From a virus (Duplodnaviria; Heunggongvirae; Uroviricota; Caudoviricetes): DNA of 61,732 nucleotides. Of this stretch, positions 3,673 through 51,464 are shown piece after piece. The position numbers were made by a program, and so were the translations under genes. The stretch lies in IMG/VR virus record IMGVR_UViG_2534682252_000039. One strand, given 5' to 3'. A model generated the notes under the pieces. That model made no database searches. It had not been told where the DNA came from and was given only the letters and a program-made list of their open reading frames with translations. Position 1 is the first letter of the stretch. Each line of letters starts with the position of its first letter.

Positions 3673-4290
3673 ATGTACGGTTTGAGCATTATGAAGCCGG
3701 ATGGCAGCGTATGGATAAGTCCAGGTTTTACGCCGCAGTGTCTGATCAACAAAGGCACCATACCGGCGACTGAAAAGTCTTTTTTTAAAACATCAATCCC
3801 GTCAGGCAAAAGTTGTTTTTTCTTTATCAGAACAGAGAAGAAGGCCGATGTCATGTACACGCATGAACAGATTGATGGATATCATGCACTAAGGCTTCAT
3901 GTAATTGTCAGGGGAACGAACCCTGGTGTTACGACGGTTTATGCTTTCGCGAATATGGTTACTCCACCTTCTGAGTATGGTATCGCCATGTATAACCCGG
4001 ACGGTGAGATGATTTATCATGGCGAAATGATGCTGCTTGACGCGAAGTTAATACCTGTTGATATCAAATTTGAAAAGGACCTTGGATATCCATGCGCAAT
4101 CATGCCTGCACTGGTCGGGTATTATAACTGGAAAAGAACTCCTTATGATCGACCGATTTATACCACATCCACTGGTGCTACAGGAAATAAAATATATTCC
4201 TGTGAGCATTATTCCGGTGGTGCAACATGGGATATTCGAAAGCCGTATATAGATAAGGTCCTGGTTATTAATACATCAGTATATGATTAG
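3673..4290 (+). CDS. Hypothetical protein with YG-x-x-I/M-Y/K repeats
   Basis: MYGLSIMKPDG and EYGIAMYNPDGEMIY repeats; low GC. Confidence 0.4.
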   Translation: MYGLSIMKPDGSVWISPGFTPQCLINKGTIPATEKSFFKTSIPSGKSCFFFIRTEKKADVMYTHEQIDGYHALRLHVIVRGTNPGVTTVYAFANMVTPPSEYGIAMYNPDGEMIYHGEMMLLDAKLIPVDIKFEKDLGYPCAIMPALVGYYNWKRTPYDRPIYTTSTGATGNKIYSCEHYSGGATWDIRKPYIDKVLVINTSVYD

Positions 4291-24975: not shown

Positions 24976-27015
24976 TTATTCTGTTACCGCTTTTTTCACT
25001 TCCACCACAATGCTGTCAATCAGCACCGGGTAAGTTGCATTTTTTGTGATATCCGTTACGCGGAGTTTGTCCACCGGGAAAGTTCCTACTGGTGACTGCG
25101 TCAGGGTAAACGCGGCACCATCCTGACCATCAATAACCGGAATAACCTGAAGGCTGTTATTTCCTGCAAAACGGAAGGCCAGCGTATGCCATTCATTATC
25201 AAATGCACCAAAGGTTCCCAGTTTCTGGTTATTTGTTGCCACTTTTGCATTGTGGTACATCACATTCAGGTCTTTTGCGTCTGTCTGGATGTAGAACGAT
25301 GCCAGCAGATTATTCCCTGCATCCCCTGTCAGGGTGACACCCTGCGGCAGAGAGGAAACCGGCCAGTAAAGCGCCATGACATACTGGTTTGCCACCAGGT
25401 CGCCCGGTACTTTAAAACGACAACTGATTAAACCACCATTTTTCAGCAGTTCAGCACCAGTACCGGCATCATGATCCAGATACCAGGATGATTTACCTGT
25501 TTCCTTGGTCAGTTTCATTGCCTTACCACCTGTGCCTCCTGTATCACTGATAATTTCAGCTTTACCGCCAGCCGGCTCCCAGCCCTGGGCTTTCAGATTT
25601 CCTTCTGACTCACTGACACGGTAAGACAGCAGTGTTGTGGTTACTGCTTCAGTTTCTGAAGGTGACGGCACTGGTGCTTCAGTTTCAGAAGATGGAACAT
25701 CGGCTTTTACTGTGGTTCGCCCCGCATGAGTCAGAACTGCCGTGGCCAGACGGTCGGAAATAATCCCACGACGTGCCCATGAACTGAAATGGCTGGCCCG
25801 GTCCGTAGATGTCCAGGTGGCGGCACTGTTACGCCACGTTGAGCCGTAATAACCAATGGATTCAATATCCGGGTCTTCTGCCGGATTGTTGGTGGGTACA
25901 TTCGCGCCATTTTCATCTGTCATTAATGGGACGAAATGAATGTTTTTATCTGTTTTATTTTTGTAGCCGTCATAGATTGCCTGGTATGCCTGTTCGTTTT
26001 TCTGTTTCCAGAAATACGTGGTATCACCACAAATCCACGGAACGCCAGCAGCACTGCCACCGGTACACTGTTCCGCCTGTTCAGCCAGGTCTGCGCGGAA
26101 TTTTTCCACCATCGCCAGAAACAGCGCAGAATGCTCCGTCGGCTTCGCATCAATATCAAACTCGCCCTGCATCCACACCACAGCAAGCAGGCGGTTTTTC
26201 GGGTTCTTCGCCAGTGCCGCTTTTGTCCGGCTGATTAAGTCCTTATACAGCGGCTTATCCACACCCCAGCGGGCTGAGTCCTCTGAAGCACCCGTGCTGT
26301 CACTGTACGTGCCGTCAGCACCCGCCGTGAATGCAGAACCACCACGGCAGCAGGGAACCAGCAGAATCCCCGCATCTGCCGGAATAAACGGCAGCAGTTT
26401 TTTGGCAATGTGAAGCCCCTGACCCACGGTGCCATATTGCCCTTTAGCCACATCCGCTTTCGGGTGATTTTTTCCACTCATATCCTGCACATCATGCAGA
26501 CAGTGGTCGGCCAGAATGATGTCGTTATACTGACAGGCTTTACCTCCCGGCGTGACTGTACTGCGACGGGCTAACTGCATAATACGCGGTTCGGGGCGGT
26601 CATATGTCTCCGGCAGTGGCAGACCTTCACCGTAAGCCATACCGTTTGACTGACCAGCAAGAACCACCACGTAATACCAGGAAGGGGAGCTGGAAGCAGT
26701 TTCATTTCCTGACGGACGGGTATGTGTTTCAGCATTATCCCAGTCTGACGGTTCAGCAGTACCGGCAACATCAGCACTTAACGGAATGACCGCACCAATA
26801 CCCGCTCCGGTAATTTCCACACTCGGATCACCGGATACTGGCCTTACCCACAGGCAATCCCGTGTATTAAAACTGATGAGACAGTCAGCAAATGTCATTC
26901 CTCCTTTTGTTTCGGCCGGAGGAAAGGGAGCCTCAAGAAATGCCGCTGTACCACCGGAAACTTTAACAGTAAAGTTTCCGGGCATTGATGATAGTTGAAC
27001 CCATTTGGACGTCAT
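24976..27015 (-). CDS. SASA/SGNH-type carbohydrate O-acetylesterase with C-terminal beta-rich domain (NanS-p-like)
   Basis: Catalytic-block motifs VLAGQSNGMAYGE and VWMQGEFD; C-terminal ~250 aa beta-rich. Confidence 0.7.
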   Translation of the reverse strand: MTSKWVQLSSMPGNFTVKVSGGTAAFLEAPFPPAETKGGMTFADCLISFNTRDCLWVRPVSGDPSVEITGAGIGAVIPLSADVAGTAEPSDWDNAETHTRPSGNETASSSPSWYYVVVLAGQSNGMAYGEGLPLPETYDRPEPRIMQLARRSTVTPGGKACQYNDIILADHCLHDVQDMSGKNHPKADVAKGQYGTVGQGLHIAKKLLPFIPADAGILLVPCCRGGSAFTAGADGTYSDSTGASEDSARWGVDKPLYKDLISRTKAALAKNPKNRLLAVVWMQGEFDIDAKPTEHSALFLAMVEKFRADLAEQAEQCTGGSAAGVPWICGDTTYFWKQKNEQAYQAIYDGYKNKTDKNIHFVPLMTDENGANVPTNNPAEDPDIESIGYYGSTWRNSAATWTSTDRASHFSSWARRGIISDRLATAVLTHAGRTTVKADVPSSETEAPVPSPSETEAVTTTLLSYRVSESEGNLKAQGWEPAGGKAEIISDTGGTGGKAMKLTKETGKSSWYLDHDAGTGAELLKNGGLISCRFKVPGDLVANQYVMALYWPVSSLPQGVTLTGDAGNNLLASFYIQTDAKDLNVMYHNAKVATNNQKLGTFGAFDNEWHTLAFRFAGNNSLQVIPVIDGQDGAAFTLTQSPVGTFPVDKLRVTDITKNATYPVLIDSIVVEVKKAVTE

Positions 27016-27114
27016 AATAATCAGCCTGTTCCTGAATAAACTGAATTATCATATCCACAGACCGATAAACGCCATTTTGCGTTAATTCAGTAAAGGCCCA
27101 ACAAAGAGAGCGTC

Positions 27115-27675
27115 TTATTTTTCCGAAACGCTCGCAGGATAATAACGATAAAGGGTTGAAAGACCGATATCAAAAATAAGTGCCACCTGTCTTCGACTGA
27201 CACCCCCGGCCAGTAAACGCCCGACCTGCTCGTATTGTTCCTGCGTGAGACGGCGGGGTCTGCCGCCGGTTCGTCCCCTTTCACGGGCAGCTGCAAGACC
27301 AGCCCGTGTCCGTTCGACAATTAATTCACGCTCCATTTCTGCCAGCGCACCCATTATGTGAAAAAAGAAGCGCCCCATGGGGGTTGACGTATCAATGTTG
27401 TCAGTAAAACTACGAAAATTTATCCCCTGTTGCTGTAATTCATCTGTCAGCGCAACAAGGTGGCGCATACTGCGCCCCAGCCTGTCCAGTTTCCAGACCA
27501 TCAGCGTGTCACCGGGTTTTAGTTTCTTCAGTGCCCGCTTCAGTCCCGGCCGCTGTGTCGTTTTACCACTCATTTTGTCTTCAAAAATCTGCTCACATCC
27601 TGCACATTCCAGCGCATTTCTTTGTAAACCTGTGTTCTGGTCATTTGTTGATACGCGTATATAGCCAATCAGCAT
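27115..27675 (-). CDS. gin: Serine DNA invertase (Gin/Hin/Pin/Cin family)
   Basis: MLIGYIRVSTNDQNTGLQ with catalytic Ser; C-terminal HTH; adjacent to inversion site. Confidence 0.9.
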   Translation of the reverse strand: MLIGYIRVSTNDQNTGLQRNALECAGCEQIFEDKMSGKTTQRPGLKRALKKLKPGDTLMVWKLDRLGRSMRHLVALTDELQQQGINFRSFTDNIDTSTPMGRFFFHIMGALAEMERELIVERTRAGLAAARERGRTGGRPRRLTQEQYEQVGRLLAGGVSRRQVALIFDIGLSTLYRYYPASVSEK

Positions 27676-27728
27676 GTATTTACCTTCCTTAAAAAGAGGT
27701 GGAAAGGCCTTTTAAAGCAGATATACGG

Positions 27729-27754
27729 CATCCCTGAAACCTCGGTTTACGGGA
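27729..27754. repeat. gix-like crossover site L
   Basis: ATCCCTGAAACC-TC-GGTTTACGGGAT; half-sites fit remembered gix/hix consensus TTnTCnnAAACC. Confidence 0.55.
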
Positions 27755-28109
27755 TACGGTAAACAGGGCCGCGAATGCCCTGCCATCAAACGGTACGGCT
27801 GTTGCAGCAAGCAGGCTGGCAAATGCCCGCAGAATCAATGGTGTCGCCTTTGACGGCACGCAGGATATAAACATTACGTCAGGAATGCCGGAATCAACGG
27901 CCAATCAGCGTTATGTTACAGGGGTAAGACTGGGAGCGCAGGCATTAAGCGGCGGACTGGAATATAATTACTCCCTGTCATCAGGAAATGTGATTACCGG
28001 TTTTAAGACTAACGGAGACTGGGAAATGCGTGGTGGTGATGACCGTGTTTATTACAGACAGATACAATATTGTATTAATGGGCATTGGGTATCCGCTGCA
28101 AGTATTTAA
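27755..28109 (+). CDS. Alternative tail-fibre C-terminal cassette (S' variable part), no own start
   Basis: Frame open from gix-L; ...INGVAFDGTQDINITSGM... homologous to S residues ~177-225, then a different tip. Confidence 0.6.
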
Positions 28110-28230
28110 TTAACGGGGGCATAGCACACAGCAGCCAGCATCTGAAATATGCGTTATTTCAGACAAGCATTGCCTGTATATGGCGATAGTATTATTCCTG
28201 TTTTTATCATTGATTTACATGGTGATGTTT

Positions 28231-28752
28231 ATGCAACTGATTAATGTCAAACGATATTACCCGAAAGACAAACCCTATGGTGAGGATGTTCAGTATTTCC
28301 AGAGTGAGGACGGAAGGGATTTTTATGAATCTATCCCGCTTTTCACAAAGAAATACAAACTCTGTATTTCGCCTGTAACGGGTATTATCTGCTCTGTTGC
28401 TGAAGATGTCTCTGCTTTATATCCGGCAGGTTTTACTGTTGTTGAAGTGGACGAACTGCCGGAAGGTGTGAATATTGACGGTAACTGGCAGTTTTCTGAT
28501 GGCCTGATATCAAAGGTGCCGGTAAACTGGAAGACGGTTGCTGAAAAGCGTCGCTCATCGCTGCTCCAGGAAGCCAACGAAACCGTGGATGACTGGAAAA
28601 CAGAATTAAAACTGGACATGATTAGCGATGAAAATAAATTACAGCTGACGCGCTGGATGGCGTATATCCGACAGCTTAAAGAAATGCACTTTAATGATAT
28701 TGCCAGTGAGGGGCATTACCAGGCGATTCCCTGGCCGGAAAAACCGGAATAA
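28231..28752 (+). CDS. Tail fibre assembly protein (U'/Tfa family) for the alternative cassette
   Basis: Start at MQLINVKRYYP; track ORF begins upstream at 28180. Confidence 0.65.
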   Translation: MQLINVKRYYPKDKPYGEDVQYFQSEDGRDFYESIPLFTKKYKLCISPVTGIICSVAEDVSALYPAGFTVVEVDELPEGVNIDGNWQFSDGLISKVPVNWKTVAEKRRSSLLQEANETVDDWKTELKLDMISDENKLQLTRWMAYIRQLKEMHFNDIASEGHYQAIPWPEKPE

Positions 28753-28786
28753 TTCAGAGGGTGCATTCAGCACCCTTTTCTGTGGT

Positions 28787-29698
28787 TTACACTGAACTTA
28801 CCGATCTCCAGGCATTATTAATATAAATCTGAACCGGGCGATAATAGACCCCACCGATATTGTCCGCAGACCGGGAGCCGGTTTCCTGCACGTTAATACC
28901 GGAAAGCATACAACCGGAAGGTGCGCTGTAATTCCATGATATTTCATTGCCTCCGGGTGAATGATAGCTCTGTGCTCCAAGCTGAACATTCTGTACATAC
29001 CGGCCATCTGCGGTTGACTGCGTCATTCCTGACGTGATGTTGATATCCTGCGTTCCGTCAAAAGGAACGCCATTAATATTTCTTGGGGTGGCGAGTCTGT
29101 TTGCTGCCACGGCGGTTCCACCCGATGGCAGGGCATCAGCAGCCTTATTTACCGTTTCCCGTAAACCGACGTTATCGATAAAAGCGCCTTTATCCGGAAT
29201 GTCTGCGCCGTTCTGCTCCCTGCGCAGGTAACGGTTATCACCTTCGCTCCTGCTGTAAACATCCAGATTATTACGGGCGGTTTCCGCATTCTCCAGGTCG
29301 GCAAGGTTCTGATCCTTCGCCAGGGCATTAACGTCAGCGGGACCAAGACTGTTTTTTGTGGCAAGCGTCCCCAGACCAAGATAACCACGGGCCAGACGCT
29401 GGGCTTCCGCACCGGCATCAGCAATTTCTTTCAGGTTGTTTTTCCGGGAAAAGGCATTCGCAGCGATAATGGCTTTAATGGACAGCGTAAGCTGGTTTAA
29501 CTGCGCCTTATCCGGCTGAATACTGGCTTCAGCCAGAATATTCAGCAGTTCGGCCTGGAGAATATTCAGCCAGTCCTGACCAATCCAGCTGATACCTTTT
29601 TGTCCGTCACCTTCGGTAAACCAGGTGGTGGTATTACTCTGCGCCGGAGCCAGTTCAGGCATATTCGCCACGCCGGAATTATTATCAACATGGAACAT
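28787..29698 (-). CDS. S: Tail fibre protein S (constant N-terminus + current variable tip)
   Basis: Start MFHVDNNSG abuts upstream stop; 303 aa; gix-R lies at codons ~173-181. Confidence 0.8.
   Translation of the reverse strand: MFHVDNNSGVANMPELAPAQSNTTTWFTEGDGQKGISWIGQDWLNILQAELLNILAEASIQPDKAQLNQLTLSIKAIIAANAFSRKNNLKEIADAGAEAQRLARGYLGLGTLATKNSLGPADVNALAKDQNLADLENAETARNNLDVYSRSEGDNRYLRREQNGADIPDKGAFIDNVGLRETVNKAADALPSGGTAVAANRLATPRNINGVPFDGTQDINITSGMTQSTADGRYVQNVQLGAQSYHSPGGNEISWNYSAPSGCMLSGINVQETGSRSADNIGGVYYRPVQIYINNAWRSVSSV
29156..29181. repeat. gix-like crossover site R, inside S
   Basis: Minus strand TTATCGATAACG-TC-GGTTTACGGGAA, inverted relative to site L. Confidence 0.55.
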
Positions 29699-30258
29699 TA
29701 AATAGTCTCCTCTTCGTGACTGTTTGCATATACGTAAATAAACGTCTGCCATGCAGGCTTATAACGGTTCAGAATACATTCCAGCGCACCACCCTCATAA
29801 ATACGCAGCGGGGTGAGAATATCATCCAGCACATTCATATTCCGGTAGCCGGTTTCACTGTTTATCGTGACAATACTGACCCACTGTGAATCCGGTGATG
29901 GCTGAATATCTATTTCATAACCAAACTCTGCCGCAAACCGGATATAAAATTCACGGTTAAGAGAGGGTTTCATCCGGTATTTATTCCCTGCATAACGCTG
30001 ACGTTCCTGAATGGTTGCGCCGGTCATATCACATTCCGGTAACCCCAGATAACGCTCCCAGTCTTCCAGCAGCAGACGGGATGAATCAGGAAAACGTTCT
30101 GCCAGCATCTGGTTACCGGTCCAGGAAACACGCTCCGTGGAATGACTGAGGCCCAGGCACAAAGCTGCAAGAACGGATGACGGCCGCTTATCCCATGCCA
30201 GCCCGTCAGGCAGCAACTGCAACAGGGCGCGCTGATGCGGGGTCAGGGTTACAGCCAT
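29698..30258 (-). CDS. Mu gp48-like tail/baseplate protein
   Basis: Position and size (186 aa). Confidence 0.65.
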   Translation of the reverse strand: MAVTLTPHQRALLQLLPDGLAWDKRPSSVLAALCLGLSHSTERVSWTGNQMLAERFPDSSRLLLEDWERYLGLPECDMTGATIQERQRYAGNKYRMKPSLNREFYIRFAAEFGYEIDIQPSPDSQWVSIVTINSETGYRNMNVLDDILTPLRIYEGGALECILNRYKPAWQTFIYVYANSHEEETI

Positions 30259-31334
30259 GTGATTTCCCCCACAGTCAGCAACTCTGTATCTCCGGCCATC
30301 ACGGACTTCAGCGGACTGCGAACTTCAAAATCCTCCAGTCCTTTCACCCCTGCAACAGCCCGCCAGAATGATGAAGGCAATACAAGTCCACCCGGCCGCG
30401 ATTCGTTATAAAGCAGGTCCGTTAATGCCTGTTTTACGGCAGCCTGATTTTCCGGCGTTTTGGGTACAATCCTGATCTCAAACGCCACCGGCTTATTGGT
30501 CAGCTTAAACACGCTGATTGTCGGCCCAAGTGGCTGACCAACGGGCTGGCCCGTCGCCGGATCATCATGACTGCGGATATAATCCGCCACCCGCTTCACA
30601 TCACCTTCTCCGGGGAAAATGTCAGGGTTATTATCCTGAACAAAAGTCACACCAACACTACCCGCCTCAGGCCATTCAGGCTTACACCATGCCCGCGTCA
30701 CGCCCGGTACTTCCCGTGCCCAGCGTTCAAAATCATACTGTGTTCCCCCTGATGGCGGGTTCTGTACCCGGAATACCAGCCTGGACAGCAACTCCGGCAC
30801 CGTTTCCACATCCGCACCACCGGTGAGTCCCGTGCCGGTAACCGTGGCTGTCTGGTTGATGCCCGCCTGTGGCGTGATAAAGGACAGGCGGGTTCCGGTC
30901 GGGGTATTTCCGGCGCGCCCCGCACTTTCCGCCTCCACATTAACATTCAGTGTTCCGGCTTTTCCGGTCGCAGAGCCGGTGATGCGGTACACAACACCAT
31001 CGCTTCGCTGAAGGAGTACGCCTTCCGTGATCCCTGCATCCGTGGTCAGCATCAGTTGTACCGGTCCGTCAGCGCGGGAAGCCGGTTTACGGATGACACC
31101 CCAGAATGCGCAGTGTTTCAGGAGTTCGGCTTCATCAGCTTCTGTCGGAATTATCTGCCGGGAGATCCAGGCCAGATGTTCATGCTCCTGTGCTGACAGA
31201 CCCGCCAGTGCATACGCAATGGCATTCAGGGTGGTTTCATTCACGCCCGGCTGCGAACCGGGCAGGCGCTGGCTGATATCCTGTTGTGTCTGTGTGATCA
31301 GTTGCGCCAGTGGTAAGGGCTGATAAGGCATCAT
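30249..31334 (-). CDS. Baseplate J-like protein (Mu gp47-like)
   Basis: Position and size (361 aa). Confidence 0.7.
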   Translation of the reverse strand: MMPYQPLPLAQLITQTQQDISQRLPGSQPGVNETTLNAIAYALAGLSAQEHEHLAWISRQIIPTEADEAELLKHCAFWGVIRKPASRADGPVQLMLTTDAGITEGVLLQRSDGVVYRITGSATGKAGTLNVNVEAESAGRAGNTPTGTRLSFITPQAGINQTATVTGTGLTGGADVETVPELLSRLVFRVQNPPSGGTQYDFERWAREVPGVTRAWCKPEWPEAGSVGVTFVQDNNPDIFPGEGDVKRVADYIRSHDDPATGQPVGQPLGPTISVFKLTNKPVAFEIRIVPKTPENQAAVKQALTDLLYNESRPGGLVLPSSFWRAVAGVKGLEDFEVRSPLKSVMAGDTELLTVGEITWL

Positions 31335-51038: not shown

Positions 51039-51464
51039 TCAGAAAAGTGGCGGTTGCGTTCTTGCCAGATGCAGACGGCGCTGTTCACGTATGACGGTAT
51101 AAATCTGGGTTTCTGACATCCGGTAATGTCGGCGAAGGGATTCAATTTTCTCGCCCCGGTCCCAGCGCGAAAATATCTCATTGTTTCGCAGCTCGGCAAA
51201 GAGAGATTCCCCGACCGGCAGGTAATAACCCCGTCCGCCCATATAGGCGGCCTGAGCCGCAGCCACCTTGCGTGCCAGTTTACCGGCCAGTACCGGCTCA
51301 ATCCCCTGACGCTGAAGTTCTGCGCCGGTGACTTCAACCAGTTCTGACAGGGTCCGTGGCCAGTTCTTTTTGAGAACATCATCAGGGATGTCATCAAGGC
51401 GGTCGATAAGGGCGTGCAGTTGCTCACTGTCACCACCAAACATGCTCATCTGAGTTTCTGCCAT
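51039..51464 (-). CDS. mor: Mor/C-family transcriptional activator
   Basis: 141 aa between gemA and lys; C-terminal HTH. Confidence 0.7.
   Translation of the reverse strand: MAETQMSMFGGDSEQLHALIDRLDDIPDDVLKKNWPRTLSELVEVTGAELQRQGIEPVLAGKLARKVAAAQAAYMGGRGYYLPVGESLFAELRNNEIFSRWDRGEKIESLRRHYRMSETQIYTVIREQRRLHLARTQPPLF

Follow-up and report, generated by a model that had tools for sequence, protein, structure and literature searches.

How can a phage that alternates between two tail-fibre tips manage with one tail-fibre chaperone? The question is raised by a Gin-type invertible segment in IMG/VR virus record IMGVR_UViG_2534682252_000039, a 61,732-nt stretch of DNA (called the window below) that is part of a Mu-like prophage of Shiga-toxin-producing Escherichia coli (STEC) and belongs to the phage type of Sp18 of O157 Sakai. 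The fibre gene S currently ends in the variable tip Sv, an alternative tip (Sv') lies silent on the opposite strand, and a single chaperone gene, Tfa, faces the expressed fibre gene. An earlier interpretation of the locus (the sequence-only reading) noted the lone chaperone and concluded either that the Sv tip can do without a chaperone or that one of the orientations is defective. We consider it reasonably probable that one generalist chaperone, transcribed whatever the orientation, serves both tips; comparisons of sequence point to both the sharing and the promoter.

The invertible segment and its inversion in nature

Features of the locus, in window coordinates, are as follows.

27115–27675, minus strand: Gin-type serine DNA invertase, 186 aa, with Ser9 in a GYIRVST motif
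27730–27755: gix-like site L, adjoining gin, with core TC at 27742–27743
27742–29169: invertible segment, 1,428 bp from core to core
27744–28109, plus strand: Sv', the silent alternative tip ('W type'), 121 aa, without a promoter or start codon of its own
28110–28230, plus strand: Sv'–Tfa spacer, 121 nt, candidate location of a Tfa promoter
28231–28752, plus strand: Tfa, the sole tail-fibre assembly chaperone, 173 aa, co-directional with Sv' and convergent with S
28756–28778, both strands: GC-rich hairpin between the Tfa and S stop codons, terminator-like in both directions
28787–29698, minus strand: S, the tail fibre gene in its current state, 303 aa (constant part 29170–29698, Sv tip 28787–29167)
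29156–29181: gix-like site R, inside S, with core GA (TC on the other strand) at 29168–29169

The invertase is a small serine recombinase of the Gin/Hin/Cin/Pin kind, with an N-terminal catalytic domain that contains Ser9 and a C-terminal helix-turn-helix. It matched the Pfam families Resolvase (5.8e-51) and HTH_7 (1.7e-14), the PHROG DNA invertase family (4e-94) and, across residues 1–182, the Mu Gin structures 3UJ3 and 4M6F (E ~7e-91). The first ~200 nt of its gene, the region of the enhancer in Mu, are ~75–80% identical to Mu gin, and Fis sites are too degenerate to be called from sequence.

Sites L (ATCCCTGAAACC-TC-GGTTTACGGGAT) and R (in reverse complement, TTATCGATAACG-TC-GGTTTACGGGAA) are each 26 bp long, consist of two imperfect 12-bp half-sites around the same central TC, and lie in inverted orientation. 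Both are similar to the Mu gix sequence, which we take to be TTATCCAAAACC-TC-GGTTTACAGGAA and which served as a lead only. The two inverted sites flanking ~1.43 kb that the sequence-only reading described were thus recovered, with site L one base away from the 27729–27754 given there. As that reading also had it, site R lies inside S, where it encodes part of FIDNVGLRETV, and an in-frame TGA (27735–27737) precedes site L. The sites form the outer ends of a 179-nt inverted repeat (27738–27916 and 28995–29173, 75% complementary) that encodes the conserved start of both variable parts, and site L is conserved in all sub-lineages of this prophage type. A third gix site that would allow Tfa alone to flip was ruled out: none was found in the segment, and within the window the core AAACCNNGGTTT had an exact match only at site L, with site R differing from it by 2 mismatches.

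Inversion of 27742–29169 in silico joined the constant part of S in frame to Sv', giving a 298-aa S' in place of the current 303-aa S, with both variable parts open to their stop codons; the description of Sv' as a promoterless alternative tip held. S itself matched the PHROG tail fiber family (2e-165) and, as a whole protein, Mu S (PDB 5YVQ_A, E 1.4e-48), with residues 1–198 aligning to Mu S 1–191 and residues 228–302 to Mu S 434–503. It resembles a 'mini' Mu fibre that lacks ~240 shaft residues of Mu S. Sv and Sv' are 56% identical, most alike over the first 50 residues and at a C-terminal YYRxxQxxINxxW motif. The last 75 aligned residues of Sv' are 59% identical to the Mu S tip; Sv is 60–66% identical to the tips of SfMu S', some P2-like H proteins and Rac-SA53 tail1.

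We searched 5,426 complete E. coli genomes with the window arrangement and with the simulated inverted arrangement, calling orientation from a one-strand joined match that covered at least 80% of the query. Inversion, which the sequence-only reading had proposed to look for, was seen in these natural genomes: 182 copies were in the present state and 26 were flipped. One flipped copy, in O157:H7 strain Z869, matched the simulated inversion in a single piece at 99.2% identity. The inner half-sites of the two gix sites differ at the innermost base (...GGGAT versus ...GGGAA), and in Z869 and in the naturally inverted copy L002 the inner half-sites were swapped and the outer halves were unchanged, an exchange that places the crossover at the central dinucleotide. 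Both orientations also occurred in each sub-lineage among IMG/VR contigs (16 present-state, 5 flipped). Judging from these comparisons of genomes rather than from this strain, the switch is active in nature.

The complete genomes are skewed ~7:1 toward the Sv-expressing state, which could reflect clonal sampling or a true inversion bias. Some copies are decaying, with a frameshift in the alternative tip (L031) or an invertase match in two pieces (L036). In E. coli 95NR1 (L003, sites at 3731 and 5106) the gix cores differ, with TC on the gin side and TT inside S, and contig L013 has a TT core at both sites. Unequal TC/TT cores should block productive inversion in Gin-type systems, and the 95NR1 state may be a locked intermediate. 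In two records of Stx-converting phages (LC727881.1 and LC727895.1) a Mu-like phage of this type is present as an insertion, which means that Stx phage genomes, too, carry the switch.

One chaperone gene and two tips

The Tfa protein belongs by sequence to the Caudo_TAP family, with an N-terminal fibre-binding domain and a conserved C-terminal helical domain; it matched Pfam PF02413 (1.9e-18), Mu U (PDB 5YVQ_B, 1e-15) and PHROG 136, tail fiber assembly protein (3e-57). When ten Tfa proteins were compared with the whole 61.7-kb window by tblastn, the single locus 28231–28752 was matched, in keeping with the earlier description of a Gin-type segment with one chaperone in place of the two of Mu. 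A second chaperone gene downstream of S, for which the sequence-only reading had left room, was rejected on this result and because the antisense ORFs found there are not conserved: two minus-strand ORFs downstream of S, of 44 and 98 aa and antisense to Tfa, are missing from the diverged relative L020, and we therefore took them to be spurious. Every relative inspected had one Tfa, including copies that are 84% identical in DNA and a sub-lineage in which Tfa is 60% and gin 81% identical to those of the window. In Mu and SfMu each variable part is followed by its own chaperone gene (U and U'); this segment has a single one. Nor does Tfa immediately follow a fibre gene on the same strand: the expressed S is convergent with it, and the silent Sv' is co-directional across a 121-nt gap.

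Such a layout could be the recent, degenerate remnant of a two-chaperone G-type segment that lost its Sv-linked chaperone by accident, with no adaptive design. The Mu layout Sv–U–U'–Sv' minus one chaperone gives exactly the gene order seen here, and remnants of Pin-type systems are common in E. coli prophages. We nevertheless consider a remnant very improbable, as the layout has been kept where Tfa has diverged to 60–64% and gin to 81% identity, is present in ~200 complete genomes in both orientations, and has three coding parts that are all intact and constrained.

The first set of loci that we gathered had Tfa as its query and was therefore uninformative about whether Sv needs a chaperone, and a second set was gathered with the Sv tip. 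This set comprised 80 loci with tips 56–99% identical to Sv, and in all 80 a Tfa gene stood beside the tip stop codon; no Sv-like tip without an adjacent Tfa was found among them. Sixty-four of the loci were in other phage types, all with a same-strand Tfa adjoining the tip (38 of this Tfa subfamily, 26 Mu-U-like), and the remaining 16 were prophages of the present type, with a convergent Tfa 34 nt from the tip stop codon. Annotated examples of an Sv-like tip with a Tfa include SfMu, two P2-like phages and Rac-SA53. The constancy of this association makes a chaperone-independent Sv unlikely, and from these neighbourhoods Sv probably needs a chaperone. The first alternative of the sequence-only reading, that the Sv tip needs none, was accordingly not supported.

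Further evidence came from relatives that lack both the invertase and Sv' (L018–L022, L024, L029 and L037). Their gene order is esterase (minus strand), a ~300-nt intergenic region, Tfa (plus strand) and S (minus strand), with Tfa and S convergent, and the same layout was found in seven complete genomes of E. coli from humans and mice (S1-CAM-01-A, JE86-ST02/05, M1/M3/M18 and CI5). A short remnant resembling a tip end (..ACCGCATATTACCGG..TTTAATTAACG) suggests that these relatives arose by deletion of gin and Sv'. They retain an intact Tfa in four alleles, with a ratio of nonsynonymous to synonymous substitution rates (dN/dS) of 0.10–0.23, and a chaperone that served Sv' only would be useless to them.

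These results bear directly on the possibility that Sv folds chaperone-free and that Tfa serves Sv' only, in which case the switch would toggle between a chaperone-independent and a chaperone-dependent fibre. Such a division of labour would fit the co-direction of Tfa with Sv' only, and also its position in the present state, antisense to the late operon and with no promoter consensus upstream. It is unlikely, however, given the adjacent Tfa at every Sv-like locus and the constrained Tfa of relatives without Sv', and Tfa also fails to co-vary with Sv', as it is 97–100% identical behind alternative tips that are ~36% identical.

The second alternative of the sequence-only reading was that one orientation is defective. 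Taken as a mechanism, the Sv orientation would be an OFF state in which misfolded fibres yield non-infectious particles, and the segment would be an on/off switch and not a means of changing host range. The lack of a co-directional chaperone and of a detected promoter in this orientation would agree with an OFF state. We nonetheless regard it as quite unlikely, and a defective orientation was not borne out: Sv is under strong purifying selection, judging from a dN/dS of 0.06–0.12 at dS 0.6–2; most genome copies (182 of 208) are in the Sv state; and the gin-less relatives, fixed in the convergent layout, would be off for good, yet they have intact S and Tfa genes, in several alleles and in seven complete genomes.

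If both tips depend on a chaperone, the specificity of Tfa becomes the issue. The Sv' tip of the prophage copies is of either a W type or an L3 type, which are ~36% identical in the tip proper, and the Tfa proteins behind W-type and L3-type tips are the ones that are 97–100% identical. Copies of the Sakai type (Sp18 is a Mu-like prophage of E. coli O157:H7 Sakai) differ from the window mainly in having the L3-type tip in place of the W-type Sv'. The exchanged cassette consists of the tip, the spacer and approximately the first 12 codons of Tfa; comparing the W-type window with the L3-type copies L003 and L011, the DNA is wholly different from ~27800 to ~28220, and the rest of Tfa, as well as Sv, is nearly identical. 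Across 80 loci, the N-terminal domains of this Tfa subfamily are 60–76% identical to that of the window and are partners of at least four tip classes. The passage of PMC9608196 that cites North et al. 2019 describes the N-terminal domain of Mu U as fibre-binding. Sv-like tips, for their part, are paired with two different Tfa families. One Tfa is thus found behind several tip classes and Sv-like tips are found with two Tfa families, which indicates that pairing is loose both ways, and these pairings make Tfa most likely a generalist chaperone. The nearest phage homologue of Tfa is Rac-SA53 tail2, which follows an Sv-like tip and hinted that Tfa is an Sv-specific cognate; we dropped this idea, as the N-terminal domain is 60–67% identical across all tip classes and Sv-like tips also pair with Mu-U-like chaperones.

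A chaperone for Sv might also be supplied in trans, either by the Tfa of a co-resident prophage or by flipped sister copies of the replicating genome in the same cell. The same Tfa subfamily is common beside fibre genes of other E. coli phage contigs (38 co-directional examples), and Tfa proteins are known to cross-complement, Montag and Henning reportedly having found in 1987 that lambda Tfa can substitute for T4 gp38. Supply in trans is rather unlikely all the same. The gin-less relatives cannot make flipped copies and yet retain a constrained Tfa, infectivity would depend unreliably on the prophage content of the host, and the long spacer that is specific to single-Tfa segments would be left unexplained.

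Proposed expression of the chaperone in either orientation

We favour a sequence of events in which Gin would recombine the gix sites at their TC cores and flip the 1,428-bp segment, joining the constant N-terminal 177 residues of S to Sv, as at present, or to Sv'. The single Tfa would fold both tips and would probably stay bound to both. In the flipped state, transcription of the late tail operon would cover both S' and Tfa. As the segment lies at present, Tfa converges on S and would need a promoter of its own, which we place in the AT-rich spacer just upstream, where inversion would carry it along. Both transcripts would end at the hairpin between the stop codons.

The length of the spacer sets this type of segment apart. 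In all 24 single-Tfa loci (21 with a convergent tip visible and 3 on contigs that end before the tip), the gap between the tip and Tfa is AT-rich and 51, 79 or 120–121 nt long; in 48 ordinary tip–Tfa pairs of the same subfamily it is 5–17 nt, just a ribosome-binding site, and these pairs include the two-chaperone invertible segments L070, L084 and L089. Gap lengths of the Mu-U-like group were unreliable as a result of split alignments and were not used. Lineages in which the Tfa coding DNA is 66–67% identical share 89–95% identity over the 65 nt that directly precede the Tfa start. From this arrangement we infer an orientation-independent Tfa promoter in the spacer.

At the other end of Tfa, the 34-nt gap between the Tfa and S stop codons contains the hairpin at 28756–28778, which is terminator-like on the plus strand and has a folding energy of -16.9 kcal/mol on the minus strand (z = -3.6). 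A hairpin is present in all lineages, at the same position in L011, L020 and L028, and a stable hairpin between convergent stop codons fits the need of two converging transcription units.

Several results weigh against this account of Tfa and its promoter. The three sub-lineages share common ancestry and do not constitute independent evidence, and recombination with invertible relatives could have brought the Tfa diversity into the gin-less copies, a possibility that weakens the argument from their dN/dS. The conservation of the 65 nt could be a recombination mosaic and not constraint. The three spacer types have unrelated sequences and may simply have come along with the swapped tip cassettes. 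In the W, L3, group C and gin-less versions alike, the sequence upstream of Tfa gave no sigma-70 consensus matches beyond the count in shuffled sequences, and a sigma-70 promoter in the spacer was therefore rejected. Words in common with the DNA that precedes lys, I, the esterase gene and other late genes were near chance. The spacer contains a palindrome (CTGAAATA-N5-TATTTCAG, 28142–28162), but it does not occur elsewhere in the window, and this single occurrence led us to reject it as a repeated late-activator or late-operator site. A scan for the consensus would miss a late promoter that depends on an activator, like those of Mu.

Folding of the spacer was no better than that of shuffled sequences (z = -1.3). 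A known RNA in the segment was also rejected, as an Rfam scan of the segment gave no match at E ≤1.

Related switches and neighbouring genes

The locus shares its recombination machinery with the G/Gin switch of Mu and its counterparts (C/Cin of P1, P/Pin of e14 and B/PinB of Shigella). The serine invertase is encoded just outside the segment; as in Mu G, TC is the core of the 26-bp gix sites, the fibre gene contains one of these sites, and its constant N-terminal portion is joined in frame to either of two inverted variable C-terminal portions; and Mu S, gp47, gp48 and U have homologues here in S, the baseplate genes and Tfa. The differences lie in the size and contents of the segment, which is 1.43 kb long compared with ~3 kb in Mu, with variable parts of ~121–126 aa compared with ~335 aa. 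One chaperone takes the place of U and U', fibre and chaperone genes are convergent in one state, and 121 nt precede Tfa where Mu has 2 nt between S and U. Downstream of gin, an esterase/DUF6645 gene stands in place of com-mom. In its recombination features the locus works like the Mu G/Gin switch, and it departs from that system in lacking one chaperone per tip.

It also differs from the ordinary fibre–Tfa modules of P2 (H–G), lambda (Stf–Tfa) and Rac-SA53 (tail1–tail2), in which the chaperone gene is on the same strand and 5–17 nt after the fibre gene; here it faces the expressed fibre. The Rac-SA53 module is close in sequence, with Sv 66% identical to the tail1 tip and Tfa as a whole 51% identical to tail2, rising to 67% for the N-terminal domain. 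An invertible 'host-specificity region' of Sp18, with genes unlike those of Mu, was noted in 2009 (Asadulghani et al., PMC2669165), and our search of the open-access literature turned up no paper that discusses the single chaperone or its convergent position.

Taken together, the parts may constitute a minimal host-range switch, in which a self-promoted generalist Tfa would move with the segment, accompanied by two freely exchangeable tip cassettes and uncoupled from the late tail operon; we are evenly divided on this broader formulation, under which the chaperone gene would face the very fibre gene that it serves, both in the majority state and in the gin-less relatives. Tfa proteins are usually treated as partners of one tip, which limits the re-engineering of phage and tailocin host range, and here one chaperone apparently serves two or three unrelated tips in a natural, widespread switch. 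If that is true, Tfa proteins would be far less specific than one would expect from Mu and P1, where each tip has its own chaperone, and swapping a tip of ~120 codons would suffice to retarget such fibres. The convergent, apparently self-promoted chaperone would also offer a simple system for the matching of chaperone supply to fibre synthesis. The switch is carried by ~200 complete E. coli genomes, many of them STEC, and bears on the host range of a transposable prophage able to move DNA between pathogenic strains.

Around the switch, the region 27000–29800 has a 100% identical counterpart in strain 2010C-3347, and several O157:H7 genomes match it at 99% identity or more. The minus strand carries all late genes. 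From right to left, its order is S, the hairpin gap, Tfa (opposite strand), the spacer, Sv' (opposite strand), gin and the esterase/DUF6645 gene. The flanking genes are as follows.

29698–30258: gp48, a Mu tail-gene neighbour
30249–31334: baseplate J/gp47, followed in the set of Mu tail-gene neighbours by gp46 and by V and P homologues
24976–27015, minus strand: SASA/SGNH sialate-O-acetylesterase-like and DUF6645 protein, 679 aa, downstream of gin

The 679-aa protein has its sialate-O-acetylesterase-like domain at residues 116–312 and DUF6645 at the C-terminus, domains with which it could be a receptor-modifying or tail-associated enzyme. Its gene is kept in all relatives and is divergent from Tfa in the gin-less ones. 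RefSeq lists a 61-aa hypothetical protein, WP_001497588.1, at 27689–27874 (minus strand), which overlaps gix site L, is antisense to the conserved start of Sv' and is probably a spurious gene call. Among the ORFs scanned, one Mor/C-family activator was found (51039–51464, minus strand), compared with two, Mor and C, in Mu; its gene adjoins GemA and lies directly upstream of the lysozyme gene.

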